Assembly: GCF_000195975.1 (NCBI RefSeq)
Contig: NC_005070.1
Location: 2,370,001 to 2,402,000 of the forward strand
DNA from: Parasynechococcus marenigrum WH 8102
GTDB lineage: Bacteria > Cyanobacteriota > Cyanobacteriia > PCC-6307 > Cyanobiaceae
Length of the DNA stretch: 32,000 nucleotides
Direction: 5' to 3'
Shown here: one piece after another, positions 9,215 through 24,244 of the stretch
How positions within the stretch are numbered: position 1 is the first letter of the stretch
How the letters are laid out: every line of letters begins with the position of its first letter
The notes under the pieces: generated by a model
Databases searched by the model: none
What the model was told of the DNA's origin: nothing
What the model saw: the letters and a program-made list of their open reading frames with translations, nothing else
Translations under genes and position numbers: made by a program

Positions 9215-9774
9215 CGAGAAGTAATGACCTGGGGTAAGTACATGGCACCTCGCCAACAAAACGAACGTGCATCATTGGAAAGTCGTTTCTACCGGGCACA
9301 GACACGTCGGCGCTTTGACCTAAGCTCTACATTAATTGAAATTAAGAGTCCCAGTATGCGCAAAAGGGCAAAGCCGTACGACAAGAGTTACAGACGGCAA
9401 TACGAGCGGAATCGTAATTCCATCAACAGAACAACTTTTGAGTACGAACTAGAAAAGGACGTAGCCGCTTTGAAGACGGTTTGGCAAATGATCAGCTCGG
9501 GAGCTGCCCGCATGCTGAACAGAGTTTTACATCAGATTTAAATCTATAAAATGAATAGCATAGATCGCACAGGAAAAAGAATATAAAATCAACAGGGAAG
9601 CTGGGAGCCTAAAAAACCAACATTGTGCTAATATATTTCTTAAGTAGCTCGAGAAATCGAAGGTTACTTCACTATCGCACGCTTTCATTATTACGTAGCG
9701 ACAAAGGTCCCCGGGCCGATTAAACTGATCTACTACATTTTTTGATCGATCAGTCCGCCCTATTTTCATGAATC

Positions 9775-11316
9775 ATGACCATCAAAAACCAAGTCAACCC
9801 CTACTTCGCAGAAAAAAAATTGAATAAGATTGAAAAAAGTAAGTTGGAAAAAGATGGGCTTTTAGTAGGAAGCGAAATCGAAAAGTTTGCAAAAATTGGG
9901 TGGGAAAATATGGATGAAACCGACTTAAAACTCCGTCTGAAATGGTATGGAATGTTCTGGCGTCCGAAAACACCCGGAAAATTCATGCTAAGACTTAGAA
10001 TACCAAATGGTGTATTGACATCCAATCAAATACGAGTTGTAGCTTCAATAGTTGAACGTTATGGAGAAAATGGAAGCTGCGACATCACCACAAGGCAAAA
10101 CCTGCAACTTAGAGGAATACTATTATGCGATCTTCCCGAGATCCTTAGAAGACTGCGTGAAGCCGGACTAAGTAGCATCCAGTCGGGCTTTGATAATCCA
10201 CGAAACGTAACCGGCAATCCACTCGCAGGAATAGATCCGAACGAAATCGTCGATACGAGACCTTACACAACTAAATTGCAGAACTTTCTCACAAATAATT
10301 GTGAGGGAAATTCGGAATATTCCAACCTACCGAGAAAATGGAACACAGCAGTTGCAGGATCTAAAGACAATTTCCTTCTTCACAACGACATAGTGTTTCA
10401 TCCCGTTGAGAATAACGGCGTGATGGGTTTTAGCATCTGGATTGGAGGGATTTTATCTCCACAGATGAACGCATATGCATTTCCCATGAATGTATGGGTA
10501 TTACCTGACGAGATCTGCAACATTTTGGATACTGTGATTCGTCTCTGGAGAGACAATGGAGAAAGAGAGAAGAGAACCAAGGGACGTTTCCGCATGTATC
10601 TCGATGAGATAGGGCACGAGGAATTCCGCAGCCAAGTGGAAAAACTGTACGGAACACTCACTCCCGATCCAGGCTCAATATTCGAAAACTCTCCACGCTC
10701 TCACTTCGGCATTAATCAGCAGAAACAAGCCGGACTTTATTTTGCTGGCATACACGTGCCGGTCGGTCGCCTCACGGCAGAGGATCTACAAGATATCGCA
10801 ACAGCGAGTCTCAAATATGGAAATGGAGAAATTAGACTCACAGAAGACCAAAATATAATTATCACAGGTCTTACGAGTGAAAAAGTTGAAGAATTAAAGA
10901 CTGATACATTATTGCAGCGTTTCCCCCTAGCACCTAGCAATATTTCAGCAGGAACAGTGTCCTGCACGGGAAATACTTACTGTAGTTTTGCGCTTACCAA
11001 CACTAAAGACCAAGCCTTAAAAGCAGCAAAGGAACTTGACGAGGAGTTGAATCTACCTGAAGAGATAAAAGTTCACTGGACTGGCTGCCCAAATACATGT
11101 GGACAGGCTTATATGGGAGCAATAGGTTTAACAGGTACAAAGGCTAAAAATGCTGAAGGAGTAATGGGTGAAGGCTACACAATGACTATTGGTGGTTCAC
11201 AGGGTCGCAACCCAACTATTGGTCAAATCTATCGCAAAGCTATACCTGCGGCTGAAATCAAAACAGCCCTTAAGGAAGTACTTATTTCAAAATTTGGAGC
11301 TACAGAAAAGAAATAA
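9775..11316 (+). CDS. nirA: Ferredoxin-nitrite reductase NirA
   Basis: 513 aa with both siroheme/4Fe-4S cysteine clusters (VSCTGNTYCSFA and HWTGCPNTCGQAYM) and the N-terminal KLEKDG...LRLKWYGMFWRPKTPGKFMLRLRIPNG block typical of NirA. Confidence 0.9.
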   Translation: MTIKNQVNPYFAEKKLNKIEKSKLEKDGLLVGSEIEKFAKIGWENMDETDLKLRLKWYGMFWRPKTPGKFMLRLRIPNGVLTSNQIRVVASIVERYGENGSCDITTRQNLQLRGILLCDLPEILRRLREAGLSSIQSGFDNPRNVTGNPLAGIDPNEIVDTRPYTTKLQNFLTNNCEGNSEYSNLPRKWNTAVAGSKDNFLLHNDIVFHPVENNGVMGFSIWIGGILSPQMNAYAFPMNVWVLPDEICNILDTVIRLWRDNGEREKRTKGRFRMYLDEIGHEEFRSQVEKLYGTLTPDPGSIFENSPRSHFGINQQKQAGLYFAGIHVPVGRLTAEDLQDIATASLKYGNGEIRLTEDQNIIITGLTSEKVEELKTDTLLQRFPLAPSNISAGTVSCTGNTYCSFALTNTKDQALKAAKELDEELNLPEEIKVHWTGCPNTCGQAYMGAIGLTGTKAKNAEGVMGEGYTMTIGGSQGRNPTIGQIYRKAIPAAEIKTALKEVLISKFGATEKK

Positions 11317-11430
11317 TTATTTTATAAGAAATAAAACAAGTTATAAAGCAAAGTTGATCAACAGAGAAGAGTAAAGATAATATTGCAAAATTAAAAGAAT
11401 TGCAATAATTAGAGTATAGAAAAAAAGATC

Positions 11431-12357
11431 ATGCTAGGGTTAAAAGGTATAACAAAGAAAGTATCGAACTTAAATCAGATGGAGAATCTATATCACATTA
11501 GAGAAAGATTCTCAATTATTCATGATAACAAGAAAATAGGAATACAGATGAAATGGGAAGGTAAAAGAGAAAAACCTCCAATGCTAATGCTTCCGGCCTT
11601 AAGTACAATTTCAAGAAGCGATGAATGGCAGAGTTTTAAAGCAATAGTGACAGATAAATACCAATTAATAACAATTGATTGGCCTGGATTCGGCGAAAGT
11701 GATAAAAAAGATATACACTACAGCGGAAAAGTATTACAAAAAACACTTAGAAAAGCTATCAAAGCAATCCAGAGAAAAAATAATAAAAAGCTAACTATAG
11801 TTGCAGCTGGTCATAGTGCCTCAGTTGTACTTACACTAAAAGACAAGTACATCAATACAATAAAACAAGTTGTGCTAATTGCACCAACATGGAGAGGTCC
11901 ACTTCCAAGTATGACAGGATGGTCTCCTAAGAGGCTAAACATCATAAATGAAATAGTAAGACTTCCTATCATTGGTCCAATACTATACTTCATAAATACA
12001 ACAAAAGTGATTATAAGATTCATGATGAAAAGGCATGTATGGCTAAATAAGAATGACCTTGATAATGATAAAATACTCAGACTCCAAGTATTATCTCGAC
12101 AAAAGGGAGCACGATACGCAAGCGCAGCATTCGTAACAGGGAGTTTAGATATAGATAAAAATAAGAAGTGGTGGATATCAAATACAAAAAAGATTCAAGA
12201 AATGTCTACTCTTGTTATACCGAAGGATTCACCAAAAAAATCATTATCAGAGATGGAAGTACTCTCAGATAGCATTAAAGATATTTTATACGTTAGAGGT
12301 AGGCTAGGTTGCCACGAAGAATTCGGAGAAGAAATCGCAAAAAGATTATTCTACTAA
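11431..12357 (+). CDS. Alpha/beta-hydrolase-fold protein, function unknown
   Basis: It has IDWPGFGESD (a typical strand-loop motif after the oxyanion region), a nucleophile-elbow-like VAAGHSASV and a C-terminal GCHEE histidine. The start is uncertain (ATG 11431 or 11479). The 3' end overlaps the znuB 3' end by 12 nt. Confidence 0.5.
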   Translation: MLGLKGITKKVSNLNQMENLYHIRERFSIIHDNKKIGIQMKWEGKREKPPMLMLPALSTISRSDEWQSFKAIVTDKYQLITIDWPGFGESDKKDIHYSGKVLQKTLRKAIKAIQRKNNKKLTIVAAGHSASVVLTLKDKYINTIKQVVLIAPTWRGPLPSMTGWSPKRLNIINEIVRLPIIGPILYFINTTKVIIRFMMKRHVWLNKNDLDNDKILRLQVLSRQKGARYASAAFVTGSLDIDKNKKWWISNTKKIQEMSTLVIPKDSPKKSLSEMEVLSDSIKDILYVRGRLGCHEEFGEEIAKRLFY

Positions 12358-13176
12358 ATTGTATACACGAGAAAATATCAAAGAAAAAAGGAAAGCAAAG
12401 AATTGCAAGATTACAATCGAAGGACCTGAAGGTAGATTAAAGAAACCTGATAAAATAAGCCCAAACAGAGCACACAAACCGCCCAGCACCATAGAAAAAA
12501 CAATATAAGAACTAAACTTACGCGAAATAAGTCTACCAGCGCATGCAGGTATTACAACGAAAGCACTTATAAGCAATACACCAACAGACTTAATTGAAAC
12601 AGATACAACAATACCCAATAAAATGATGAAAGCAAGTTTATGGAATCTTGTGTTAATACCAATAGAGCCAGCCAAATCCTCATTAAGAGTTAAAAGAACA
12701 TGAGAACGAAGACTAAAGACAAGGTAGATAAAAGAAACAATAAAAAGGATCAATGTAATATATATATCTGATGCTGTAATACCAAGAATATCTCCAAAAA
12801 GCAACTGCTTAATGCTACCACTATAAGAGTTGATTTTACTTAAGGCAAGAACAGCTGCTGCTAGAGAGCTAGAATATACGATATTCAATAGTGCGTCGGT
12901 AGGCAAAGAACTGCTCTCAACTAGATTATTTACAAGAAATGCAAATATAATGGCAAAAGGAATAAGAACAAAAGTAGGATTCACATTTAAAAGGATACCT
13001 AGAGTTATACCGAGCAAGGCAGAATGCCCTAATGCATCACTAAAAAAAGCAAGTTGTCGGAGTACAGCAAAATAACCTATAAGCCCTCCTAAAGAACCAG
13101 TTAAAAAGCCACCAATTAATGCGCGGTGAATAAATGGCTCATCAAATAACTCAAAAAAAGTTGATAAATCACCCAC
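12346..13176 (-). CDS. znuB: Metal (zinc-type) ABC transporter permease, ABC-3 family
   Basis: 276-aa polytopic membrane protein (FIHRALIGGFLTGSLGGLIGYFAVLRQLAFFSDALGHSALLG is the ZnuB/MntB family N-terminal pattern). It overlaps znuC by 8 nt in an operon. Confidence 0.8.
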   Translation of the reverse strand: MGDLSTFFELFDEPFIHRALIGGFLTGSLGGLIGYFAVLRQLAFFSDALGHSALLGITLGILLNVNPTFVLIPFAIIFAFLVNNLVESSSLPTDALLNIVYSSSLAAAVLALSKINSYSGSIKQLLFGDILGITASDIYITLILFIVSFIYLVFSLRSHVLLTLNEDLAGSIGINTRFHKLAFIILLGIVVSVSIKSVGVLLISAFVVIPACAGRLISRKFSSYIVFSMVLGGLCALFGLILSGFFNLPSGPSIVILQFFAFLFSLIFSRVYNLVE

Positions 13177-13936
13177 GACATTGATGCTGATAAGAAACTA
13201 TATTGGGCCCATAGAGAACACTTAATCTTTCGGAAGTCAATGCAAGATTAGGTACACCTCGGCAGCACAAACGTCTATTTAAACCAAGTACTTGATCGCT
13301 ACTACGGAGAACCATATCAATATCGTGAGATATATGGAGGACAGTCCAACCTTCCTGCCGACGCAATTCAAATAACATTTTTTGAAAACGTTGAGTTGAA
13401 GGTATATCTAGACCAGCCTGAACTTCGTCCAAAACAAGAAGATCCCTCGGACGTACGATACAAAATGCAAGCATAACTCGCTTCAGTTCACCGCCAGAAA
13501 GTTCACTAAGAAGACGTCGTCTTAAATTAAAAGTATCGGTTCTTTCCAAAGATCGATGAACTAAAATCTTAGTATGGGAGTCACGCATGCGTAGAAAGGA
13601 CGAACAATTACTAAGTCCAAGTTGCACGAACTCAAATACGGAGAGGGGAAACTGACCCTGAAAAGAAAAATTCTGTGGAATATAAGAAATTCGCTCGCGT
13701 ATGGATTTCGGTAGATACCCAGCTTTATTCATTTTGGTGCCCATAATAGTGATGTCGCCTGAGACGCGCGGAATAAGACCCAACAAGGAGGCAACTAATG
13801 AACTCTTACCAGCACCATTAGGGCCAACTAAAGCTGTATCACTCTCAGCTAATAATTCAAAAGAAACATCATCTACAGCAACATTGGCACCCCTTCTTAC
13901 AGTAAGATTCTTAACAGAAGCAATTGGATATGACAT
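13169..13936 (-). CDS. znuC: Metal (zinc-type) ABC transporter ATPase
   Basis: Walker A GPNGAGKSS, ABC signature LSGGELKRV and Walker B LLVLDE are present. It lies between the permease and the binding-protein genes. Confidence 0.85.
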   Translation of the reverse strand: MSYPIASVKNLTVRRGANVAVDDVSFELLAESDTALVGPNGAGKSSLVASLLGLIPRVSGDITIMGTKMNKAGYLPKSIRERISYIPQNFSFQGQFPLSVFEFVQLGLSNCSSFLRMRDSHTKILVHRSLERTDTFNLRRRLLSELSGGELKRVMLAFCIVRPRDLLVLDEVQAGLDIPSTQRFQKMLFELRRQEGWTVLHISHDIDMVLRSSDQVLGLNRRLCCRGVPNLALTSERLSVLYGPNIVSYQHQCRG

Positions 13937-13939
13937 AGT

Positions 13940-14848
13940 TTAACCACCAAGAGAGAGAAGAAGATTGGACAAGTTATCCCGCATAAGGTCAAAATAGAGA
14001 GACTCGTCATACACAAAATCCCGTGAAATAGTTTCAATGGGATTGAATAGTGCTATTTTAATATTAAGATCACGTGCCAACGAATTGAAAGAATTGTTTC
14101 CATCTTGAGGCTCAGTTAAAAGAGCCTTTAAATCGGAGTCTCGAACAAGATTCGAAACTCGCTGTAAATCAACGGGGCTTGGATTGATATCTGGCAGATC
14201 AACTAAGTATTCAGCTTTTAATTGATATCGTTCAGCAAAATATGGTGCAAAGTCATGATAGGCGATAAATGATTTGCCCTGATAAGGCTCCAACTTGGAT
14301 AAAATTTCAGCATGCAATGCGAGCAGGTCATCCACATAAGCGGAGGCATTTAAAGTATAAACTTCACTACAAGCAGGGTTTAATTCCGCAAGAGCATCTT
14401 TAATAGTCTCAACCTGGCTAATAGCGCGTATAGGATCTAACCATATGTGAGGATTAGGATCAGAATCCGCGTTAGAGATATCAGTAGAAATGGTCTTGAT
14501 ACCAATACTAGTGTCAACAACGGATAATGTTGTACTCGCTGATGAAGAGATTAGCCTGTCTAAAAAAGTCTCCATTCCCAAGCCGTTAATAAAAAATATA
14601 TCAGCCTTGCCAATAGATAGAATGTCCTTAGGAGTTGATTGAAAATCGTGTGGTCCAATATTTGTGGGTATTAAAGCTTTGACATCACCGCATTCACCGG
14701 CTACTGCCCTAGCAAATAGTGTTATGGGAAGGAATGAGGTCATAATAGAAATTTTCTTAGACCTCTCAGGAGGCGTTGTGAGGGAGCCGCAAGAAACCAA
14801 AAATATTGAGGCTAGCGAGCCAGTAGCCCACTTACTGAAGCGCACCAT
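13940..14848 (-). CDS. znuA: Periplasmic metal-binding lipoprotein, ZnuA/TroA cluster A-I
   Basis: The signal has a lipobox (SIFLVSCGS). Ligand-position motifs are GPHDFQ, NPHIWLDP and AYHDFAPYF. The third ligand position is His, as I recall for Zn-type rather than Mn-type members. There is no long His-rich loop. Confidence 0.75.
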   Translation of the reverse strand: MVRFSKWATGSLASIFLVSCGSLTTPPERSKKISIMTSFLPITLFARAVAGECGDVKALIPTNIGPHDFQSTPKDILSIGKADIFFINGLGMETFLDRLISSSASTTLSVVDTSIGIKTISTDISNADSDPNPHIWLDPIRAISQVETIKDALAELNPACSEVYTLNASAYVDDLLALHAEILSKLEPYQGKSFIAYHDFAPYFAERYQLKAEYLVDLPDINPSPVDLQRVSNLVRDSDLKALLTEPQDGNNSFNSLARDLNIKIALFNPIETISRDFVYDESLYFDLMRDNLSNLLLSLGG

Positions 14849-14965
14849 GTAGGAGAAGCGAAGTCAAATACGATACGAAAAACCAAAGATATATTTGAAT
14901 CACTGAAAAAAAAAGGCAGTGTAAGCTACCTGGTATTAGTATAGTAGTTGATCACTCATCTAGTA

Positions 14966-16348
14966 ATGAAAGAAAAGCGAAAGGTTCCTGTCACCATACT
15001 TACTGGCTACCTTGGGGCAGGGAAAACCACACTGTTAAACAAGATCTTGAGAGAAGAGCACGGCAAAAAGATTGCAGTCATAGAAAACGAATACGGCGAA
15101 GTTGGAATTGATCAAGGACTCGTCATTAATGCAGACGAAGAGGTCTTTGAAATGTCTAATGGTTGCATTTGTTGCACGGTAAGAGGTGATCTGATAAGAG
15201 TCCTAGGCAATCTAATGAAACGTAGGGACAAATTTGATTACGTTTTAGTTGAAACGACCGGCCTCGCTGACCCAGGGCCGGTAGCACAAACTTTTTTTAT
15301 GGATGATGAAGTTAGAGATGAATTTACTCTTGATGGAATAGTGACGTTAGTAGATTCTGCTCACATTAATCAACAATTAGAACATAGCACTGAAAGTGCA
15401 GAGCAGGTCGCCTTCGCGGACGTACTCATACTCAATAAAACTGACTTAGTTTCCAAAAACGAAGTCAACGTACTTGAATCACGCCTTAGAGATATGAACA
15501 AAATGGCCCGTATACTGCGTTCAAAAGAAGCAGGGGTCGATGTTGAAGATGTCTTGAATCTTGGTGCATTTGATCTCCAGCAAACATTAGATAGACGTCC
15601 GACATTTCTCGAACCTGAATATCCGTTTGAGTGGACCGGAGTATATGAACTTAAGAAAGGAAACTACAGGCTTTATTTTGATGATGGACCTGATCCAACA
15701 ATGCTAATAACAGCAATAGAATTTAATAGTTCAAATGGAAAAGATCTTGACGGGTACGCCGAAGATTGTGTAAGAATATTTTCAAAAGAACCTAAACAAC
15801 TTATGCCAGGTGAAGCAATAAGTTTTAACGAGGTTATTGAATTACAATTACAAGATGCGGGTCAGAAGGCCTTTGAATTATACATAGATAATAAATCAAC
15901 TATAGGTCTCTTCACCCAACATACGGCAGAAGAATTCAATATAAGACTGGATGACAATAAGGATGATCAGACAAGAGATAAAAAATTTAGCAATATAACT
16001 AAGGGGATTGATACAAAGACCGAAAGAATATGGGTAGCTGAACACGAGCATGACGATGAAGTTGGATCTATTGCTCTAGAAAGCCTTGGCAACATTAATC
16101 CAGATAAATTAAACGATTGGATTTCAAAACTTCTCCGAGAAAAAGGAGTAGATATATTTAGAACCAAAGGATTTATCAGCTACGCTGAAGAATCTAGAAA
16201 AATTGTATTTCAAGGGGTCCATATGTTATTTACTGCAGAGCCTGGAAGCGAGTGGGGAAACGAGCCCAGGAAGAACCAACTTGTATTCATAGGCCGAAAT
16301 TTAGACGAGGATGCATTAAGGACTGAGTTTGAAAAATGTCTAGCATGA
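14966..16348 (+). CDS. COG0523 (CobW/ZigA/YeiR-like) G3E-family GTPase metallochaperone with ~150-aa internal insertion
   Basis: Motifs present: Walker A GYLGAGKTTLLN, metal-binding CICCTVRGD (CxCC), LVETTGLADP, NKTD, an acidic/His patch AEHEHDDE, and a CobW_C-like end (IFRTKGFISY...LVFIGRNLD). The ATG at 14966 is preferred over the TTG at 14948. It is divergent from znuA. Confidence 0.85.
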   Translation: MKEKRKVPVTILTGYLGAGKTTLLNKILREEHGKKIAVIENEYGEVGIDQGLVINADEEVFEMSNGCICCTVRGDLIRVLGNLMKRRDKFDYVLVETTGLADPGPVAQTFFMDDEVRDEFTLDGIVTLVDSAHINQQLEHSTESAEQVAFADVLILNKTDLVSKNEVNVLESRLRDMNKMARILRSKEAGVDVEDVLNLGAFDLQQTLDRRPTFLEPEYPFEWTGVYELKKGNYRLYFDDGPDPTMLITAIEFNSSNGKDLDGYAEDCVRIFSKEPKQLMPGEAISFNEVIELQLQDAGQKAFELYIDNKSTIGLFTQHTAEEFNIRLDDNKDDQTRDKKFSNITKGIDTKTERIWVAEHEHDDEVGSIALESLGNINPDKLNDWISKLLREKGVDIFRTKGFISYAEESRKIVFQGVHMLFTAEPGSEWGNEPRKNQLVFIGRNLDEDALRTEFEKCLA

Positions 16349-17403
16349 AAAGATCTAACAGCATCTTTCAAGATGGATGGTACAGTGAAATTAGCGAATA
16401 CGTAATAGCTTGTGACTGGGCACTCGAAAATAAGAATATTATTGCTGCAGATATAACAGGCAACATTTACTCTTTTGATGCAAAAACAGGGAAGTTACTA
16501 TACATGCAAAAAGACACTCACAACAAATCACTCTTAGATCTAGCAGTAAATCCCAACGGAAGCATATATGCAACTTGTGGCCAAAACGGCAAGGTTGATA
16601 TTAATGCGGCTTCAGATGGAAGCTTACTAAGTTCAAACTCATTAGGCAATGACTGGGTTGACAATATACAATGGACAAACAACGGAAAATTATTAGCCGG
16701 TAGCATTGGAAAGTTCGTACATGTGATTGATTCGTCAGGAAATCAATTATGGCGTTCCGATGAACTGACAAGTACTGTGTCAGCAATATATTGGTCAAAT
16801 AATAACGAATTAGCGATAGCAAGCTATGGCCAAGTGATTATTTACGATGTAAAAACCAATAAAGCTTGTCAAAGATTTGAGTGGAAGGGATCTCTTATAT
16901 CATTGGCATTGAGCCCAAACGGGGAAATTGTAGCTTGTGGAAGTCAAGACAATTCAGTACATTTTTGGCGACGAACTAATGGTAAAGACGCTGAAATGAC
17001 TGGTTATCCTGGCAAACCTAAAGATATTGTGTTCGATATTACGGGTCAATATTTAGCTACAGGGGGAAGCCCCCAAGTTACAGTATGGAACTTTAAAGAT
17101 AAGGGTCCTGAGGGAACAATTCCGGGACAACTTATACTTCATAATGAGCCGATAAGTTGCCTTAGCTTTGCTAACAGTAGCTCGTTATTAGCATCTGGTG
17201 CAAAAGATGGATCAATTGCAATTTGGAAATTAGATAAAAATGGAGATGGTGAGCCCATTGACAAGGTATCCATCAACTCGACGCCGACACGACTAAAATG
17301 GAAGAGAGACGATAATGCCTTTTTAGCTGCTAGCGACTCGGGGAAATTATTCTGCTGGGATATACCGTCTAAAAAAGGAGAAGGAATCGGATTCAAAAAC
17401 TAA
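16336..17403 (+). CDS. WD40-repeat beta-propeller protein
   Basis: 355 aa with repeated blades ending in W-x motifs (VHFWRR, VTVWNF, IAIWKL, LFCWDI) and GS/GG-rich turns. It overlaps the COG0523 3' end. The in-frame ATG at 16345 forms an ATGA overlap with the TGA stop at 16346-16348. Confidence 0.8.
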   Translation: MSSMKRSNSIFQDGWYSEISEYVIACDWALENKNIIAADITGNIYSFDAKTGKLLYMQKDTHNKSLLDLAVNPNGSIYATCGQNGKVDINAASDGSLLSSNSLGNDWVDNIQWTNNGKLLAGSIGKFVHVIDSSGNQLWRSDELTSTVSAIYWSNNNELAIASYGQVIIYDVKTNKACQRFEWKGSLISLALSPNGEIVACGSQDNSVHFWRRTNGKDAEMTGYPGKPKDIVFDITGQYLATGGSPQVTVWNFKDKGPEGTIPGQLILHNEPISCLSFANSSSLLASGAKDGSIAIWKLDKNGDGEPIDKVSINSTPTRLKWKRDDNAFLAASDSGKLFCWDIPSKKGEGIGFKN

Positions 17404-17748
17404 ATATATGACCGTTCGATATAATCCTTGAGGATCAAAGGAAGTTGATTAAGAAATTAGAAACTAATTCAAATGCGACTGGCCGGACTGTATAATGGTG
17501 TAAATCAATACAATACACGTTATGTATCAAACTCAATGGCTGGCCTCCGTCACTGACTCACTGCGGAAGCGTTATCTAAAGTCTCAAAAAGAAAATGACA
17601 AAAAAGCAACTACAGAATTGTTTAAGGAAGCGGTTTATTTAGGCATTAACATACGCAATTTTGATTAAGATTTTTAATGGGCCGACAATAGATTCCTTTA
17701 TAATAACATGAATGTATATAATATAGGAAGAGTCCTAGCCTATTGCCA

Positions 17749-18072
17749 ATGAATGAAGAATCAGCAAAAAGTAACGAAGACCAAGATATTTTTTCACAAT
17801 TAATGAAAGAAGTAAGTACACTTGCTTTATTAAAAGAATCAGGTGCAAGTATTATTCAAGGAAAGATTTTAATAATTATCGTTGGAATTGAAAAGGATGG
17901 AGAATTGTTAAAGGGCAAAGAGATACAACCTAAATATTGCAATATAAGCAATGAAGAAGAATTCCAAGAATTTATTAAGGGTAATTACAAAAATGTTGAT
18001 ACTTTATATGTAAGATACTTTAGACCCGGAGACATAGAATTAAGTGAAATTACTAAATACATAATAAAATAA
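17749..18072 (+). CDS. Hypothetical protein (107 aa from the ATG)
   Basis: A stop-free run of about 109 codons in roughly 30% GC DNA is unlikely by chance. The protein has an acidic N-terminus and a hydrophobic core (ILIIIVGI). No recognisable motif. Confidence 0.35.
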   Translation: MNEESAKSNEDQDIFSQLMKEVSTLALLKESGASIIQGKILIIIVGIEKDGELLKGKEIQPKYCNISNEEEFQEFIKGNYKNVDTLYVRYFRPGDIELSEITKYIIK

Positions 18073-18112
18073 AAGAGCTACTTTAGGCGGGTTCAACAAA
18101 CACAAAGTGTAA

Positions 18113-18979
18113 CTAAGAAGACTCTTCAACTGCTCTTGTTTCGCGAAGGAGATGATCCTCAAGTTGGAGTTTGATATCAATGAAGAGAGAATCTTTTTCT
18201 ATAATATTACGGATTCTGGGCCTTGGCAAAGGGACATCTATAATATCTGCAATATTTGCAGATGGTCCACTTGACATAAGTACAATTTTGTCAGACATTA
18301 ACAATGCTTCTTCAATACTATGTGTAATTAAAAGAGCTGTGACTCTATTTTTCTCCCATATTTTTAACACTTCTTCTTGCAAATAGGACCTTGTAAGGGC
18401 ATCAAGGGCTCCAAAAGGCTCGTCCATAAGTAACATAGACGGATTAATAGACAAAGCTCGTGCAATAGCAACTCTCTGCTTCATACCACCTGAAATTTGC
18501 TTTGGAAACTTGTTCATTGAGCGTTCTAACCCAACCATATTCAAAAAGTATCTGGCTTTTTCACGCCTCTGTGAGGTACTTAGTTCTGGACAGGCCGTCT
18601 CTAAGGCATATTCGATGTTGCCTGCGGCGGTAAGCCAGGGCATCAGTGCGTAGTTCTGAAAAATTATGCCTCTGTCTGGACCAGGGCCAACCAGTGGCTT
18701 GCCTTCGATGAAAATTTCACCAGACGTGAAATCATCTAATCCTGCTAAAAGATTCAAAAGCGTTGATTTACCACAACCCGAAGGGCCAATCAAAGAGACA
18801 AAAGTGTTCTTTTTAATATCGAGATTCACACCTTCAAGAGCAACATAGTTCTCAGTTTTTTTGTTAAAAAGAGAAGGTCGAGAAATTGGGAAAACTTTGC
18901 TTAGATTTACAATTTCAACATGAGATTCATGTTCCTTGTAAGAAATGGAATCAACTGAACTGGGAACAGATTTAGTCAT
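18113..18979 (-). CDS. cynD: Cyanate/nitrate/bicarbonate-family ABC transporter ATPase (CynD-like)
   Basis: Walker A GPSGCGKST, signature ISGGMKQRV and Walker B LLLMDEP are present. It overlaps the permease gene by 4 nt. The substrate is assigned from the cynS context and from the known cynABDS clusters of marine picocyanobacteria. Confidence 0.75.
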   Translation of the reverse strand: MTKSVPSSVDSISYKEHESHVEIVNLSKVFPISRPSLFNKKTENYVALEGVNLDIKKNTFVSLIGPSGCGKSTLLNLLAGLDDFTSGEIFIEGKPLVGPGPDRGIIFQNYALMPWLTAAGNIEYALETACPELSTSQRREKARYFLNMVGLERSMNKFPKQISGGMKQRVAIARALSINPSMLLMDEPFGALDALTRSYLQEEVLKIWEKNRVTALLITHSIEEALLMSDKIVLMSSGPSANIADIIDVPLPRPRIRNIIEKDSLFIDIKLQLEDHLLRETRAVEESS

Positions 18980-19755
18980 GAATCGTAATTGAATCGAAGT
19001 TGCAAAATCTCAAAGATTTGATCCAGTACATAACCAGTTATTCCTATGATTATAATTGCTACAAATATGTTAGCTACATATAAATTGTTCCATTCATTCC
19101 ATATAAAATATCCGATACCCGTGCCTAGAAGCATTTCAGCAGCAACTATTACAAGCCATGCTGTACCCATTGAAATTCTCATCCCAGCTAAAATATTTGG
19201 CATTACTGCAGGTAAGATGACTTTGGTAATGGTATTTGTTTTGGAAGCACCTAATGACTTTGCAACTTTTAAGACATCAGAATCTACGGATTGAACACCA
19301 ATTGCGGTATTAATTAAAGTCGGCCAGATGCTTGTAATAAAAATGACAAAAATACCGGTAACTTCTGAATTTCTAAATACGAATAAGCCAATGGGCAGCC
19401 AGGCAAGCGGTGAGACCGGTTTCAGTAGTTGTACATAAGGATCAACAGAAGACTTAACGGTTTTGGAAACACCAACAAAGAGACCGACTGGAATTGCAAC
19501 AACCATTGCAAGTGTGTAACCAATTAGAACTCTTCTTAAGCTTATAAGTAAATTGAAACCAATCCCTAAATCGTTAGGACCGTTATCAAAAAATGGATCT
19601 GATATCCACCATAATAATTCCTGAAAGGTCTTTAAAGCCCCTGGAAAATTAGGAATTAAATTGGTACTGGCTATAATTTCCCAGACAACGCAAAAAGAGA
19701 GGAGGCTAGATCCTGAGATCAGTAACGATCTCAGGATTGTTGACTTTGTAGACAT
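18976..19755 (-). CDS. cynB: NrtB/CynB-family ABC transporter permease
   Basis: 259-aa membrane protein with the binding-protein-dependent permease pattern (VAKSLGASKTNTITKVILPAVMPNILAGMRISMGTAW, an EAA-like loop). It lies between cynA and cynD. Confidence 0.8.
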   Translation of the reverse strand: MSTKSTILRSLLISGSSLLSFCVVWEIIASTNLIPNFPGALKTFQELLWWISDPFFDNGPNDLGIGFNLLISLRRVLIGYTLAMVVAIPVGLFVGVSKTVKSSVDPYVQLLKPVSPLAWLPIGLFVFRNSEVTGIFVIFITSIWPTLINTAIGVQSVDSDVLKVAKSLGASKTNTITKVILPAVMPNILAGMRISMGTAWLVIVAAEMLLGTGIGYFIWNEWNNLYVANIFVAIIIIGITGYVLDQIFEILQLRFNYDS

Positions 19756-19760
19756 ACAGT

Positions 19761-21440
19761 CTATACACCGTCTCTATCAATTTGTTTGCTGACATAGCCC
19801 AACGGATCAGTAGGGTCAAAGCTGTCGTATGCAAGCTTCTCAGTCTTGAACGAACGGGAGGGAGGATTGAAACCCAGCTCCCTCTCCAAAGATTGAGCTT
19901 CATTTGTTAGGAATATTGCAGCACTATTAGCATTAAAGTCACCAGCTTTAATTGCGTCAGCAGCTCCTCCAAGGTCCCATCGTACAAGTTGAGACTGAAT
20001 CCAATGTGAAAAGCTCTGCCAAGGATAAGGTTTAAAATCTATTCTGTCAGGAACATTTTTCTTATTGCCCAAGCCGTCATCGAACTTGCCTGTCAAAACA
20101 GCTTCAACGACTTTAGTCGGTTGGTTTAGGAAGGCGCGGCCAGAAATGTATTTCGCAATTTCAGATCTGTTAGTAGGATTTGTTGCATAATTCGCAGCTT
20201 CAATAATAGATTTATTGATGGCTTTAAAAGTATTTGGATGCTTGTTAATCCAGGGTTCACCCGCAGCAAAAGCGCAGCATGGATGACCAACCCAGAGATC
20301 CTTAGTTAGAAGGTGAATAAAACCAACACCTTCAAACACAGCTCTTTGATTAAATGGATCAGGCATCAAATATGCATCGATATCACCTGCAACCATCTGG
20401 GCAACACTATCCGGTGGTGGTACAGGGCGAATTTGTACATCCTTATCAGGATCAACTCCACCCTTAGCGAGGTAATATCTAAGTAGTAAATTATGCATCG
20501 AGTATGGGAATGGTACTCCGAATACAAAGCCTTTCATATCTGCGGCAGATTTAACTTTATCCTTGTGGCGATTAGCTACAGTTATTGCTTGTCCGTTGAT
20601 ATTTTCAATACTGGCTAATTTGACGCTGAATGGAGAAGTTCCCAATCCCAAAGTCATAGAAATAGGCATTGGAGCGAGCATGTGATAAGCATCAAGCTCA
20701 CCTGCAATGGCCGAATCGCGAACAGCTCCCCAACTTGGCATTTTCACAACCTTACATTTCAAACCATTAGATTTATAGAAACCCATAGGTTCTGACATGA
20801 TTATCGGTGTTGCACATGTAATTGGAATGAATCCAATCTTCAAGTTAGTTTTCTCTAATTTACCGCCGGCATGACCTGCTGCATGAGCATCTTGAGTATC
20901 TAAGCCTGCGCTATTGGCAATTGTTATCATGGCCGCACCAGCAGCCAATCCTTTGAGAAATGACCTTCTTCCAAAAGGGGAACTAGAGTGAATAGAGGCA
21001 AAGAATTCACCTGCTTGAGGACCAAAAGCTGCTGCCATTGCTTGGTCTAATCCACCGGCTTCTTCAGCTAGTGCCCGTAGAAGCTTTTCCTTGGCAGGAT
21101 CACCTTGAGAAGCGTTCTTATAAAAAAGAATCTCTCTAAGCTCCGCTGATGAAACAGCCTCAGCGACTTCTACAGCATCGGCTTTAATCAAACCCATTTT
21201 ATAAAAATCATCCATCAAATCCTCAGGATCTGAAGGCATATCTTCGGTAAAATCTTGATGATCTGGACTAAATGGCCGGCATTCTACACAGAAGCAAAAC
21301 AAACCATGACCGGTTTGTGGTTGAAAGGAAGGAGAACTTGATGTAGCTTCTGTAGTGCTATTACATTGAAGCTGTGACTTAAGAATCTCAGCGGCAGTCT
21401 GAGTTGTTGTGGATGCATGCGAGGTGAAAAGATTCGCCAC
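19761..21440 (-). CDS. cynA: NrtA/CmpA/CynA-family periplasmic substrate-binding protein with long N-terminal extension (GTG start in track)
   Basis: Residues from about 190 to 559 read as an NrtA-like binding protein (KIGFIPITCATPII, AYLMPDPFN, GHPCCAFA). A perfect Tat motif, GRRSFLKGLAAGAAM, sits at residues 157-170 rather than at the N-terminus. The frame stays open for the 134 AT-rich codons between the GTG and Met135 (21036-21038). Confidence 0.8.
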   Translation of the reverse strand: MANLFTSHASTTTQTAAEILKSQLQCNSTTEATSSSPSFQPQTGHGLFCFCVECRPFSPDHQDFTEDMPSDPEDLMDDFYKMGLIKADAVEVAEAVSSAELREILFYKNASQGDPAKEKLLRALAEEAGGLDQAMAAAFGPQAGEFFASIHSSSPFGRRSFLKGLAAGAAMITIANSAGLDTQDAHAAGHAGGKLEKTNLKIGFIPITCATPIIMSEPMGFYKSNGLKCKVVKMPSWGAVRDSAIAGELDAYHMLAPMPISMTLGLGTSPFSVKLASIENINGQAITVANRHKDKVKSAADMKGFVFGVPFPYSMHNLLLRYYLAKGGVDPDKDVQIRPVPPPDSVAQMVAGDIDAYLMPDPFNQRAVFEGVGFIHLLTKDLWVGHPCCAFAAGEPWINKHPNTFKAINKSIIEAANYATNPTNRSEIAKYISGRAFLNQPTKVVEAVLTGKFDDGLGNKKNVPDRIDFKPYPWQSFSHWIQSQLVRWDLGGAADAIKAGDFNANSAAIFLTNEAQSLERELGFNPPSRSFKTEKLAYDSFDPTDPLGYVSKQIDRDGV

Positions 21441-21462
21441 AAATCGGGTTCATACTTCTTTA

Positions 21463-21505
21463 TTTATAGTTGGAAAGCGAACGCGGATGTTGTATCAGGT
21501 GATAC
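21463..21505 (-). promoter_or_regulatory. NtcA-activated (class II type) promoter of cynA: GTA-N8-TAC box plus -10 element
   Basis: TGTATCAGGTGATACT is at 21491-21506, with GTA at 21492-21494 and TAC at 21503-21505. On the minus strand, TATAAA (21468-21463) begins 24 nt after the box. The cynA GTG at 21440 lies about 20 nt further on. Confidence 0.6.
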
Positions 21506-21694
21506 TCATAGCAAAACTTGTCGGAATTGTCTCACTTGCTACATTAATCGGCTGTTCAATTTATTAGAGAGAAAGGTAGTTCTCCAGATAAAATTTGTTG
21601 GATGTCCTAAACAGTATGCGCTTAAACTGAAAATTATACTTATTGCAACAATGAGTGAATCTTTATTATTAGGAATTTATTATATTTGAGAGAA

Positions 21695-21711
21695 GATCTG
21701 CTGCGCAGATC
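21695..21711 (-). terminator. Short hairpin downstream of tatA (candidate terminator)
   Basis: GATCTGC-tgc-GCAGATC is a 7-bp stem lying 13 nt after the tatA stop on the minus strand. It is followed there by TTCTCTC, which is only partly U-rich. Confidence 0.3.
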
Positions 21712-21724
21712 AATCGCCTTAAGA

Positions 21725-21928
21725 TTAAAGGGTATCTTCTTTAGGATCTTTGTCCTCCAAGACAACTACATCAATTTCTCTCTTAAATTCATCAGAGGCG
21801 GATCTAAAACCGCCCAAATATTTAGCCAAATATTTTCCTACTTTGGGCAATTTATTAGGCCCTAAGACTAATAAAAAAATAAGGCATATAATTAGTATCT
21901 CAGGAAAACCTAATCCAAAAAAGCTCAT
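21725..21928 (-). CDS. tatA: Twin-arginine translocase subunit TatA/E
   Basis: The 67-aa product MSFFGLGFPEILIICLIFLLVLGPNKLPKVGKYLAKYLGGFRSASDEF fits the TatA pattern (G..E, TM helix, GP.KLP..G, amphipathic F+ region). Confidence 0.75.
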   Translation of the reverse strand: MSFFGLGFPEILIICLIFLLVLGPNKLPKVGKYLAKYLGGFRSASDEFKREIDVVVLEDKDPKEDTL

Positions 21929-21948
21929 TTGTGATTGACCGCTAATTT

Positions 21949-21976
21949 ATTATAGCTGTGACGGTAAGTTCATCAA
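21949..21976 (-). promoter_or_regulatory. Candidate sigma70-type promoter for tatA (TTGATG-N16-TATAAT)
   Basis: On the minus strand TATAAT lies at 21954-21949 and TTGATG at 21976-21971, with a 16-nt spacer. The -10 element ends 20 nt before the tatA ATG. AT-rich context makes chance matches likely. Confidence 0.3.
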
Positions 21977-22073
21977 GTTGATTTTAGACATATTTAAGAT
22001 TACCAATTTTGCTTTTGTAAAATTACTATCGAACGGTATACGTGCATAATGTAAATTCATGCAGCAGGCAATA

Positions 22074-22102
22074 TAATTGATTGATTTGCAAGCAATCAAT
22101 TA
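22074..22102. repeat. Perfect 10-bp inverted repeat with 9-nt spacer (TAATTGATTG-atttgcaag-CAATCAATTA), function unknown
   Basis: Read directly from lines 22021 and 22081. It lies in the AT-rich non-coding stretch between tatA and the HEAT-repeat gene. No flanking T-run, so it is not a typical terminator. Confidence 0.9.
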
Positions 22103-22601
22103 GCTGGCACATTCTCCTAATATTCGGCTTCAAAAGTATATGCTCGTTTGTTGTATTCTCTTAATTCATTGCTTATTTAACCACTCAGACTTCTAAAATA
22201 GTATAAGGATATATAACTTTATCTCAAATGACTTATTACAATCAAAAAAGAGTCGGGTTCTGATTGGTGCAGACGTAAACGTAAAATACCGACGGGTTGA
22301 TACAAAATCGTAATTGTTAACCGACAACGAATTCTTAGTAGAACTGGATACAATTTAAATACAATAATTGAAGTTTAGATAAATTCGGCATACATCATGT
22401 GTCAAGAGCGAGTCGTAATCATTTACCTAGGTAACCATAAATGAAAAATCATACGCTCAGACTCAGCAAACCTAAAATAGGGAAAATGATATGTGATATA
22501 TTTAATCGGTACCAAGACTATATAGTAGACTTGTTGTGTTCGTTTCTACACAATGAAGAATTACATCTTGCACCAAAAAAAACTACTAGCGCTAAACAAC
22601 C

Positions 22602-23327
22602 ATGAAGGATAACGAATCAGATCTGTGGGAAAGACTCGGAAATTCACGTAAGGTTCCATTGGATCCTCGTTGGTTAGAAAATGTTTATTCGCCCAACCTT
22701 GCTACTGATCTGCGGCTAGCTCTCTGTGAAAAAATGGGTATGCTTGCAGATCATGGCTGGCCGATTATTGAACATCTACTGCAACGCTATGGCGACATGC
22801 CTGAATTGGTGATGGCCGCAGGACTCTGCCATCAAATTGAGGCCCGTGAATGGTTACTGGAACTGCTCAAGCGCAGCAATGATAATGAAAAACTTCGACT
22901 AACTGCAGTTCAATCGCTTAGTTGTTGGGGTGCTGAAGTTCCCGAAGCAATCGTCACTCATTGCTTACATCATCCTGGTCAAAGTTATCGACTCGCTGGA
23001 CTTCAATTGCTGGAATTTCGCTCACATCTTCTAACAGATCACCAACTCTTGGATTACTGTAATGAAGCACTCAACGATTTTCGGGATTCAGTTGTTATTG
23101 AAGCAGTCCGTATAATTCAGCGTCGTGACAGTAAAGAAATCTGCAAACGATTATTTTGTTTGTGTCAAGAAGACTCTGACGAAGTCGCATTTACCGCACT
23201 CAGAGCTCTTAGCTGTATAGCATCCGAAAACAGCAAGAGATATTTACTGAAACTTAGTAAAACCCTAAAAAGTGAATCAAGACGGTCATTTGCCCAAAAA
23301 AAACTTAACGAACAGTTTAGAACCTAA
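22602..23327 (+). CDS. HEAT-like (PBS-lyase/NblB-type) repeat protein, function unknown
   Basis: 241 aa with recurring helical-repeat signatures (RLTAVQSLSCWG, YRLAGLQLLEF, VVIEAVRIIQRRD, VAFTALRALSCIA). It is on the opposite strand to the surrounding cyn genes. G+C is somewhat higher than the rest of the island (lines 22801 at 53%, 23101 at 37%). Confidence 0.55.
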   Translation: MKDNESDLWERLGNSRKVPLDPRWLENVYSPNLATDLRLALCEKMGMLADHGWPIIEHLLQRYGDMPELVMAAGLCHQIEAREWLLELLKRSNDNEKLRLTAVQSLSCWGAEVPEAIVTHCLHHPGQSYRLAGLQLLEFRSHLLTDHQLLDYCNEALNDFRDSVVIEAVRIIQRRDSKEICKRLFCLCQEDSDEVAFTALRALSCIASENSKRYLLKLSKTLKSESRRSFAQKKLNEQFRT

Positions 23328-23349
23328 AGCCCAATAAGAATTGGGCTTT
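23326..23349. terminator. Hairpin between convergent genes (candidate bidirectional terminator)
   Basis: AAAGCCCAA-taagaa-TTGGGCTTT is a 9-bp stem that starts inside the HEAT-gene stop codon and lies 23 nt from the cynS stop. The A/T runs in the stem arms give U-tracts on both strands. Confidence 0.5.
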
Positions 23350-23372
23350 AGATAAGTCCAAAGCCTTAGATT

Positions 23373-23807
23373 TCACCATTTCTTATAGGGTAAAAACTTA
23401 CCACACATTACAATTTTGACACGATCACCTTTAGGGTCCTCAACTTTATCGACATCAATAGTGAAATCAATGGCACTCATAATTCCATCTCCGAAATGCT
23501 CCTGAATTACATCTTTCAGAGGCATACCATACACCTGCATGATCTCGTAAAAACGATAAATCAAAGGATCAGTGGGAATCACTGGCTCAAGGCTTCCCTT
23601 GGTTGGATATTCCTGCAGTGCCGCTGTTGTTTCTGCATCAAGGGATAACAAACCAGCAAGTTTCTCGGCCTCCTCCTTCGAGGCCGTCGCTTGGCCATAG
23701 AACAAAGATGCAACCCAAACCTCATCGAGACCAATGGCCGCCTCGAGATCAGCAAAACTCATACCTTTGGCCTTTTTGGCGGCCATCAACGTGGCTGTTA
23801 AAGACAT
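23373..23807 (-). CDS. cynS: Cyanase (cyanate hydratase) CynS
   Basis: [40 protein letters not shown]...[12 protein letters not shown]...[34 protein letters not shown] has the typical cyanase N- and C-terminal domains. The ATG at 23805-23807 was verified. The track start at 23837 is a TTG and less likely. Confidence 0.9.
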
Positions 23808-24244
23808 AACGGTCAAGCGAACAATAAACTGCCTCAAAGCAGCATTCCAAATCGGAACGTCTCAGAAGCATCGTAAGTGTCACCCAGCAGATGCACTCAA
23901 AATGCAGCAACGGCGACCAAATCAATTCATCGTTTTGATGCATCGCATACAACAGACACGTTCCTGTGACGCTGCAATAAAAAAATATAACTACAATCAA
24001 ATGAGTCAGCTCTTTCGGGACATCTCGTCGTTGTTGTTCAGCCAACAATTGCAAGCAAAACCGGCCATCAACCTCGTCCTCGAGCGTCTGTACTACGCCG
24101 ATGGTCGTCACAACCCCGACCATCCCCGGCACGGCAGCTTCGACGGACTGAACGTCCTGCCGCAACACTAGGACGATTGGTATCAACCACTACTTTCATG
24201 GGGTCCGGCACTCCTGAACACTTCGTTCAGCTGAGGGGACATCT

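Follow-up and report, generated by a model that had tools for sequence, protein, structure and literature searches.

The substrate-binding proteins NrtA and CmpA (PDB 2G29 and 2I48–2I4C) have the same fold as residues ~190–559 of the cyanate-binding protein CynA, and all three occur in an ATP-binding cassette (ABC) importer context, with a permease and an ATPase. Like most CynA proteins, NrtA and CmpA carry a signal of the twin-arginine (RR) type followed by a lipobox Cys, and in Synechocystis the RR motif of both lies within a few residues of the start. The closest relative to have been characterised, S. elongatus NrtA, has been proven to be a lipoprotein (Maeda and Omata, 1997, cited in PMC4390861). 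Binding and transport of cyanate (and nitrite) have been demonstrated for the CynABD of S. elongatus alone (Maeda and Omata, 2009, cited in PMC4390861). Here, we analysed cynA in a 32,000-nucleotide (nt) stretch of the Parasynechococcus marenigrum WH 8102 genome (NC_005070.1, positions 2,370,001–2,402,000; the window). CynA differs from NrtA and CmpA in a conserved domain that precedes the RR motif (the N-domain, within a pre-RR region of 115–171 residues) and is found only in CynA, and the CynA of the window has also lost the lipobox Cys. Judging from orthologue alignments, the ~156 extra residues ahead of the export signal are under strong selection in essentially all cyanobacterial CynA.

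Several systems place sequence ahead of a twin-arginine translocation (Tat) signal or share parts of this arrangement. Tat lipoprotein signals processed by signal peptidase II, as in Streptomyces and haloarchaea, have in common with CynA the RR-x-F-L motif, a moderately hydrophobic, Ala/Gly-rich hydrophobic region (h-region) and a Cys at a fixed distance. However, known Tat signals measure ~25–60 residues with an unstructured N-terminal region (n-region), whereas CynA has as its n-region a domain of more than 110 residues that is helical, carries Cys and His and is under selection. Rieske iron-sulfur proteins (UCR_Fe-S_N) also have their Tat motif away from the extreme N-terminus and their N-terminal part in the cytoplasm, as we propose for CynA. 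In these proteins, though, the signal is a hydrophobic, uncleaved anchor and the N-terminal extension is short or consists of further transmembrane helices, while CynA combines a weak h-region with a lipobox after it in 97% of members; a UCR_Fe-S_N match was seen in 1/45 family members, at chance level (E 0.057). The bipartite transit peptides of thylakoid-lumen Tat substrates (OE23, OE17) likewise put an N-terminal extension before the Tat signal without preventing transport, but these are unstructured eukaryotic import signals cut by the stromal peptidase, whereas the CynA domain is bacterial, structured and family-specific. Finally, the Tat proofreading chaperones (TorD, DmsD, NapD) offer a possible functional analogy, as cytoplasmic modules that sit by a Tat signal and hold the precursor. 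They are separate proteins acting in trans on cofactor-containing enzymes, and we found no similarity in sequence or fold between them and the CynA N-domain; no cofactor requirement is known for NrtA-type binding proteins.

PMM0370 of Prochlorococcus MED4 belongs to the same family as CynA and has the same extension of 155–157 residues. Read et al (2017, ISME J 11:2267) treat its extra residues as dispensable mass that is saved under nitrogen (N) stress, and the accessible part of that paper gives no account of the extension's conservation, its Cys/His motif or its placement ahead of a Tat/lipobox signal. A description of the N-domain was not found in Pfam, NCBIfam or the searchable literature, where Read et al (2017) is the sole, indirect mention.

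Conservation and start of the long reading frame

The N-domain is a genuine, conserved protein-coding region that only CynA has, and it lies at a fixed distance from the promoter, the RR motif and the lipobox. The promoter elements and the parts of the precursor that the argument rests on are the following.

21492..21505, reverse strand: NtcA-type site GTATCACCTGATAC (GTA-N8-TAC, perfect), beginning 65 nt upstream of the cynA GTG
21463..21468, reverse strand: TATAAA, a −10-like hexamer, 23 nt downstream of the NtcA box and ~22 nt upstream of the GTG
19761..21440, reverse strand: cynA, full-length precursor of 559 residues, GTG start
21309..21440, reverse strand: residues 1–44, a variable, low-complexity Ser/Thr/Gln-rich tail, poorly alignable between clades; ratio of nonsynonymous to synonymous divergence (dN/dS) 0.265, AlphaFold2 predicted local distance difference test (pLDDT) <50
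21240..21308, reverse strand: residues 45–67, Cys/His knuckle H45-x3-C49-x-C51-x2-C54-x6-H61, dN/dS 0.041
20973..21239, reverse strand: residues 68–156, helical part of the CynA-specific N-domain, with invariant columns, dN/dS 0.012–0.038 and AlphaFold2 helices over residues 59–153
20880..20972, reverse strand: residues 157–187, twin-arginine signal, assigned by TAT_signal matches and lipobox statistics, dN/dS 0.007
19764..20879, reverse strand: residues 188–559, NrtA/CmpA-type substrate-binding domain, assigned by Pfam NMT1_2 and Foldseek

A preliminary description, made from the sequence alone, had every cynA coordinate and motif in the right place and drew attention to the open frame upstream of Met135 (codon 21038–21036), in DNA that it put at roughly 40% GC. 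The segment coding for residues 1–156 has 44% GC, and 39/200,000 shuffles of its 156 codons were free of in-frame stops; the other two frames of the same strand contain 6 and 16 stops across it. An in-frame TGA (21452–21450) precedes the GTG, which coincides in the alignment with the ATG starts of P0002 and P0003 (MKN...) and of the Prochlorococcus orthologues.

A homologue search with the full protein returned thousands of sequences, of which the best 120 were considered, and alignments of 20 and of 110 sequences were built. The best 120 are mostly 535–575 residues long with 88–100% query coverage and come from marine picocyanobacteria (Prochlorococcus, Synechococcus), Xenococcaceae, Acaryochloris, Halomicronema, Leptothoe, Myxosarcina, Roseofilum and Prochlorothrix. 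Some 110 homologues from cyanobacteria, of roughly 540–560 residues, share this N-terminal region. Both alignments show conservation from about residue 45 on, and P69, P72, D78, M82, A93, A128, G129, G130, A134, A137, A138, F139 and G140, followed by R158-R159, are invariant in the 110 sequences. In Halomicronema, Acaryochloris thomasi, Myxosarcina, a Prochlorothrix-like contig and marine contigs, the cynA-cynB-cynD-cynS operon opens with the long gene, and the long form is therefore the canonical cyanobacterial CynA. Orthologous loci were drawn from 35 genomes, 22 of the marine loci having a complete 5′ end. In 22/22 of these, the frame is open for 138–184 codons before RR and has no frameshifts, rather than being interrupted upstream of a start at the Met135 equivalent. 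Prochlorococcus loci have 153–157 open codons before RR, mostly beginning with an ATG immediately after the upstream stop.

The preliminary description had proposed an orthologue comparison as a check, and it bore out an extension conserved as protein. Pooled Nei–Gojobori estimates over seven unsaturated pairs gave a dN/dS of 0.01–0.04 for residues 45–157 overall (0.030 for residues 68–127 and 0.012 for residues 128–147), 0.007 for RR and the h-region and 0.023 for the mature domain. Synonymous divergence is similar across these regions (synonymous differences per site, pS, 0.29–0.38), and the constraint therefore acts on the encoded protein, not on the RNA. An RNA element was also considered and rejected, as an Rfam search of the cynA 5′ region gave no match and synonymous sites are free to vary.

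These data bear directly on whether the extension could be an annotation artefact, that is, a leader that stays open in frame by chance and is never translated. Some entries do begin at the equivalent of M68 (P0014, P0059, P0102). However, in P0059 and P0102 the upstream frame is open, offers usable start codons and encodes the conserved Cys/His motif, and from their sequences we regard database entries beginning at this position as start-calling errors. The rarity of open shuffles, the low dN/dS, the conservation across cyanobacterial orders, the fixed distance to the promoter and the lack of any Rfam element make an artefact scarcely credible. The related suggestion in the preliminary description, an upstream in-frame start that is not used, fails on similar grounds: purifying selection equals that on the mature domain, conservation spans orders, the promoter keeps its distance and Met135 is lineage-specific.

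The promoter was correctly placed just upstream of the GTG. From the perfect NtcA box (21505..21492) to the start of the long open reading frame (ORF), the distance is 65 nt in the window and in locus L003, 66 nt in L002 (a high-GC marine Synechococcus contig) and 66–69 nt in Prochlorococcus of the high-light (HL) clades HLI and HLII. This spacing sets the centre of the box ~41–42 nt upstream of a transcription start site (TSS) lying 17–19 nt before the start codon. By sequence, the NtcA box and the −10-like element, at a position conserved in orthologues, constitute a predicted nitrogen-regulated promoter, and the cynA TSS is predicted near 21456–21457, which would give a leader of ~16–17 nt. 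This geometry matches MED4, where the primary TSS lies at 352957, 18 nt upstream of PMM0370 (561 residues), in every condition, and where PMM0370 is induced under N deprivation (Read et al, 2017). Two more GTA-N8-TAC sites are present in the window, at 22338–22351 (between tatA and a HEAT-repeat gene) and at 24180–24193 (~340 nt upstream of the listed cynS start). Three such sites per window is within chance (35/100 shuffles reach three), and among them only the cynA site is backed by conservation across the orthologous loci compared.

TSS mapping, another check put forward in the preliminary description, turned out to cut both ways. The primary MED4 TSS supports the long start, but internal TSSs at 353380/353381 (+406), enriched under N deprivation, are also reported in the same study, where a 406-residue ‘PMM0370 Int’ is modelled; shortened by 155 residues, this form keeps all elements that thread onto CmpA (Read et al, 2017). 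This raises the case for two isoforms, in which the long ORF would be transcribed from the NtcA promoter while the working protein came mainly from an internal transcript and start (Met135 in the window, Met156 in HL Prochlorococcus) as an ordinary short Tat precursor, making the extension dispensable. Consistent with this, CynA of HL Prochlorococcus has a Met (residue 156) exactly before RR (SSPM-GRRAFL in L013, L014, L019 and other HL loci), and Met135 of the window lies 22 residues before RR. However, the Met before RR is confined to HL Prochlorococcus, with F, L, T or S there elsewhere, and at least 90% of homologues have Phe at the position of Met135. In the window, the equivalent of +406 falls within the Met135 codon, ~2–3 nt past its first base, which means that a corresponding transcript would lack the Met135 start, and a promoter-like scan gave no site upstream of Met135. 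Many internal ‘TSS’ in the strongly induced PMM0370 (the gene name occurs up to 28 times in one table) may be processing or degradation ends. As two isoforms would also leave the purifying selection on residues 45–156 unexplained, we consider this account improbable. As the Met before RR goes together with the +406 TSS of MED4, a clade-specific short CynA isoform in HL Prochlorococcus is plausible; it cannot explain the N-domain and may add a second product in one clade.

The N-domain and the signal that follows it

The preliminary description had singled out CFCVEC, an acidic stretch and a helical segment, and these correspond to residues 49–54, 67–79 (DMPSDPEDLMDDF) and 99–132 (AELREILFYK...AGGLD), respectively. 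The Cys/His knuckle has the pattern H-x3-C-x-C-x2-C-x6-H in the marine clade and C-x2-C-x3-H-x4-5-H in other cyanobacteria, one of the two being present in 105/110 homologues, and is probably metal-binding. The helical part contains M68-P-x-D-P, M82-G, the AELR helix and an invariant A128-G-G...A-A-F-G...F-F motif, with five or six helices predicted by AlphaFold2 in residues 68–156. The pLDDT was 55–78 over residues 59–153 with 110 sequences and averaged 69 with 45 N-domain sequences.

Residues 1–156 gave no Pfam or NCBIfam match, even at E ≤ 1, and across 45 family members Pfam recovered TAT_signal alone, the other matches being at chance level. A PDB profile search with the N-domain yielded only a CARD domain (4uz0, E 0.085). 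Foldseek with the N-domain model found nothing at E ≤ 0.001 (best E 5); with the full-length model it found NrtA, CmpA and the CmpC/NrtC regulatory domains only. When the N-domain profile was searched against 1.84 billion representative proteins, 55 proteins were recovered, all of them CynA-like or fragments thereof. The N-domain is thus confined to CynA, with no other architecture containing it and no stand-alone gene encoding it. A kinase fusion (P0160) was set aside as a candidate for another architecture, as its N-domain is common to the frameshifted fragments P0162 and P0164 and it looks chimeric. Identity of the knuckle with the ZAS motif (H-x3-C-x2-C) was also rejected, considering that the patterns differ and that there is no zf-HC2 match; the 45 members gave single zinc-finger matches at chance level (E 0.07–0.11).

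The helical segment had been described as faintly Nif11-like. A leader of the Nif11 or nitrile hydratase leader peptide (NHLP) type would be cut after A-G-G (128–130) by a double-glycine peptidase, leaving a Tat signal of normal length. A128-G129-G130 is indeed invariant, the pattern of the preceding helix is superficially similar to Nif11, and nitrile hydratase genes adjoin the cyn operons of Acaryochloris and Myxosarcina. However, the Nif11/NHLP profiles (PF07862, TIGR03798, TIGR03793) had no match at E ≤ 1 for residues 1–156 or at E ≤ 10 in the 45 family members, and the resemblance did not hold up. No C39-peptidase ABC exporter or modification enzyme was present near cynA among the scanned ORFs of the window or in related cyn loci, and the nitrile hydratase genes nearby encode no precursor peptides but the usual alpha and beta subunits, together with a cobW activator. 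We therefore regard such a leader as highly improbable.

The Tat consensus begins, as described, at residue 157 (G157-R158-R159-S-F-L-K), far from the N-terminus: 157 residues precede RR in the window protein, and 115–171 (median 138) do so over the 110 cyanobacterial homologues. G-R-R-S-F-L-K is followed by an h-region (L165–A175) and then S177, so that G-R-R-S-F-L-K-G-L-A-A-G-A-A-M-I-T-I-A combines the consensus (S/T-R-R-x-F-L-K) with a moderately hydrophobic h-region (mean Kyte–Doolittle 1.66 over 15 residues) that is short and Ala/Gly-rich; moderate hydrophobicity is typical of a cleavable Tat signal. Pfam TAT_signal (PF10518) matched residues 158–174 at 20.8–22.0 bits, just under its 22.7-bit cutoff, and NCBIfam TIGR01409 matched residues 158–176 at 19.3 bits, above its 16.7-bit cutoff. 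The noted series GRRSFLKGLAAGAAMITIA then AHA|AG is present, with the small correction that AHA is residues 185–187. During Tat export, the n-region of the signal is not translocated and is left on the cis side, and thylakoid Tat precursors that keep their N-terminal stromal-targeting extension are still transported. As it would remain on the cis side, a long N-terminal region is mechanistically permissible ahead of a Tat signal.

In 107/110 homologues, the first Arg is followed 19±1 residues later by a Cys within L-[AST]-[NSG]-C, often with Asn at −1, as expected of a lipoprotein signal. The window CynA reads I-A-N-S177-A-G ... A-H-A187-A-G, with Ser in place of the lipobox Cys (codon 20910–20912), and so lacks the lipoprotein pattern [LVI]-[ASTVI]-[GAS]-C. 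The Cys is also absent from L003 (Synechococcus sp. AG-670-A05, 91% identical), P0033 and P0034, which suggests that a few lineages switched from a lipid-anchored to a soluble or signal-anchored CynA. Candidate signal peptidase I sites in the window protein, read by eye from the sequence, are A-N-S|A after S177 and A-H-A|A after A187.

For a domain ahead of an internal Tat signal, the preliminary description had offered an uncleaved signal-anchor and a chaperone-binding pro-region as alternatives. The domain itself was upheld, and a pro-region fits the family better than a signal-anchor, because the lipobox Cys is present in 107/110 homologues; for the window CynA, a signal-anchor is possible because the Cys has been lost there. 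Taken for the family, a permanent, uncleaved signal-anchor would make CynA an N-in/C-out bitopic protein whose N-domain putatively interacts with CynB/CynD or with a regulator (PII, for example) and so ties cyanate uptake to nitrogen, metal or redox status. Rieske proteins provide a precedent for uncleaved Tat signal-anchors. The four sequences without a lipobox Cys (the window protein, L003, P0033 and P0034), selection on the N-domain as strong as on the mature domain, and a CynD that lacks the NrtA-like regulatory domain carried by NrtC and CmpC would all suit this account, as would the proposal of PII-dependent CynABD control in S. elongatus (Chang et al, 2013, as cited in PMC6603209). However, 107/110 homologues have, at a constant spacing after RR and in lipobox-like surroundings, a Cys that predicts cleavage, and an h-region of ~11–14 hydrophobic residues, short and Ala/Gly-rich, is weak for a stable transmembrane anchor. 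The window protein also has its plausible signal peptidase I sites. We consider a family-wide signal-anchor a credible minority view.

Proposed export of the CynA precursor and probable role of the N-domain

At a probability of roughly 0.55, we favour the reading that CynA is made as a long precursor from the GTG, with a cytoplasmic pro-domain that acts in cis before export and is lost together with the Tat/lipoprotein signal. Transcription from the NtcA-activated promoter, with a leader of ~16–18 nt, would lead to translation from the GTG at 21440 and to the long precursor. Residues 45–156 would then form a CynA-specific cytoplasmic domain directly before the Tat signal, with a probably metal-binding Cys/His knuckle ahead of five or six helices. 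Tat would carry the NrtA-like binding domain, already folded, across the membrane and leave the N-domain on the cytoplasmic face. In nearly all orthologues, lipoprotein signal peptidase would cut at the lipobox Cys and remove the whole N-terminal part of ~175 residues, so that mature CynA would be a lipid-anchored binding protein like NrtA and CmpA. Put most simply, CynA would be a Tat-exported lipoprotein with a ‘signal peptide’ of ~175 residues, long because its n-region bears a folded domain in the cytoplasm. In the window lineage, with Ser for Cys, cleavage may instead fall to signal peptidase I (at A-N-S|A or A-H-A|A), or the signal may keep the protein anchored.

The N-domain would serve in cis before or during export, in holding, quality control or targeting of the precursor, a role that we rank first with moderate confidence. 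That the domain is strongly selected and confined to CynA points to a role in cis, specific to this protein, and the position immediately before the signal, with probable removal at the lipobox, favours action before or during export. We thus infer a cytoplasmic topology, lipobox removal, metal binding and a pre-export role of the N-domain.

Several points weigh against this reading. The long CynA protein, its cleavage and its location are predictions from sequence comparison. A domain that was merely discarded would not obviously need selection this strong, which implies some function but does not specify which. AlphaFold2 confidence for the N-domain is moderate (55–78), and residues 1–57, which include the Cys/His knuckle, are below 60 and largely below 50. 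The +406 internal TSS of MED4 lies upstream of the Met directly before RR, and some CynA may accordingly lack the domain. The window CynA is itself without the lipobox Cys, and the Asn at lipobox position −1 (LANC, LTNC) is unusual for classical lipoboxes.

The main rival to a pre-export role is a lasting cytoplasmic regulatory role, exerted either by a signal-anchored protein or by a cleaved fragment that persists. In a further and more novel reading, which we hold to be doubtful, the N-domain would be a cytoplasmic sensing or signalling module that gates Tat export or transporter activity in response to nitrogen (PII), metal or redox status through the Cys/His site, or that persists, once lipoprotein signal peptidase has cut at the lipobox, as a membrane-tethered fragment of ~175 residues reporting the amount of CynA exported. 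If the fragment version were true, CynA would have a bacterial ‘signal peptide’ with a second life, far larger than the enterococcal pheromones derived from lipoprotein signals.

Operon, genomic neighbourhood and implications for cyanate uptake

Behind the N-domain and signal, the window protein is, by its sequence matches, a CynA family member whose mature part is an ordinary NrtA/CmpA-type binding protein. NMT1_2 (PF13379) covers residues 194–433 (E 7e-79), and Foldseek matched NrtA 2g29 and CmpA 2i4b with target template modelling (TM) scores of 0.83–0.87 (E ~1e-28) and the C-terminal regulatory domain of CmpC, 9uak, with a target TM-score of 0.85. The other cyn genes are also present.

18976..19755, reverse strand: cynB-like permease in the same operon, downstream of cynA; BPD_transp_1 equivalents follow cynA in L001, L002, L040, L041 and L042
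18113..18979, reverse strand: cynD-like ABC ATPase of 288 residues with a Walker A motif; ABC_tran equivalents are present in related loci
23373–23837: cynS (Cyanate_lyase, E 3e-36)

As expected for CynABD, cynA is accompanied by cynB, a cynD without the NrtC-type C-terminal domain, and cynS. In the window, cynS is parted from cynA by tatA and a HEAT-repeat gene; orthologues lie in contiguous cynABDS operons.

The tatA/E-family gene (67 residues, 21725–21928, reverse strand; PF02416, E 3.5e-12) lies directly upstream of cynA. It is found there in L003 as well and not in Prochlorococcus, and the same lineage has lost the lipobox Cys; the gene may encode a Tat component that travelled together with a Tat substrate, and its position is no more than suggestive of TatABC-dependent export. 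The Prochlorococcus gene next upstream of cynA (at the position of PMM0369, with its own TSS; L014 2336–2620) encodes 94 residues with two CxxC pairs and a transmembrane helix and is unrelated to tatA.

These genes belong to an island at ~9500–24000 of the window, with 37–40% GC in a genome of 56–65% GC. It comprises nirA (9775–11316), an alpha/beta hydrolase gene, znuB/znuC/znuA (12346–14848), cobW/COG0523 (14948–16348), a WD40 gene (16336–17403), cynD/B/A, tatA, the HEAT-repeat gene (22602–23327) and cynS (23373–23837), and has the look of a region for nitrogen and zinc scavenging gained by horizontal transfer. The island CynA is 70–75% identical to Prochlorococcus CynA. The cobW–WD40 pair lies by cyn operons in the window (14948–17403), L001 (2944–4997), L040 (1–1871 and 15572–16552) and L041 (17358–21564) and is absent from L002, L042 and L043; we treat a link between the Cys/His motif and cobW (a COG0523 metallochaperone) as a lead and not as evidence. 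In Acaryochloris thomasi (L040) and Myxosarcina (L041), the pair sits with nitrile hydratase (alpha, beta, accessory), HupE/UreJ and DUF1348 genes, nitrile hydratase being a better-known type of cobW client. A WD40 gene is also found upstream of cynA in Prochlorococcus MIT 9314 (L014 529–1602). In Halomicronema (L001 5348–7830) and Acaryochloris (L040 7266–9337), a PAS histidine kinase and an AraC-type response regulator lie directly upstream of cynA, and outside the picocyanobacteria the cyn operon may be under dedicated two-component control.

Long pre-RR regions extend beyond cyanobacteria. CynA proteins from cynABDS operons of Nitrospina and Verrucomicrobia have 75–110 residues before RR (L034 2803–4221; L037 2704–4191), and a search with the Nitrospina protein uncovered a clade with 39–148 pre-RR residues (P0185–P0290) from Nitrospinae, Binatia, Tectomicrobia, Myxococcota and Planctomycetes; Verrucomicrobia CynA is likewise extended. 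These extensions contain DPFDP, a His/Cys-rich stretch and a VENAVVRAIF helix, and an A-x-A site replaces the lipobox. By eye, they share DP-x-DP and [DE]-x-A-h-x-x-A-h with the cyanobacterial ones. However, hhalign of the two extension profiles aligned only RR and the h-region (23 columns), which does not establish homology of the extensions. Going by these sequences, cyanate-type binding proteins repeatedly carry a long pre-RR extension with Cys and His; should the sensing reading hold, its principle could apply to cyanate transporters at large. The gene immediately upstream of cynA in Verrucomicrobia (L037 1600–2679; also L032 and L035) encodes an NMT1_2 protein of 359 residues without a signal, which may be a cytoplasmic paralogue serving as a sensor.

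CynA is the entry point for cyanate, a nitrogen source of Prochlorococcus and Synechococcus in nitrogen-poor oceans, and cynA serves as a marker gene. One quarter of its length is taken up by a conserved domain that no family model covers: a hitherto undescribed component of a known transporter and not an annotation error. A domain before the Tat signal defeats standard signal-peptide prediction and leaves CynA liable to misclassification as cytoplasmic or to wrong start calls, and the entries beginning at the M68 equivalent show that the latter already occurs. For Tat biology, CynA presents an unusually long, structured n-region on a natural, mostly lipoprotein signal, and with it a natural test of what the translocase tolerates on its cis side. 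For cyanobacterial nitrogen control, the N-domain is a candidate element through which the as yet unexplained regulation of CynABD after translation could act. The result corrects the published assumption that the CynA extension is dispensable, with an observation that is solid and general and from which we infer the mechanism. It also bears on nitrogen saving in Prochlorococcus by N-terminally shortened proteins, considering that the part called dispensable is under strong selection.

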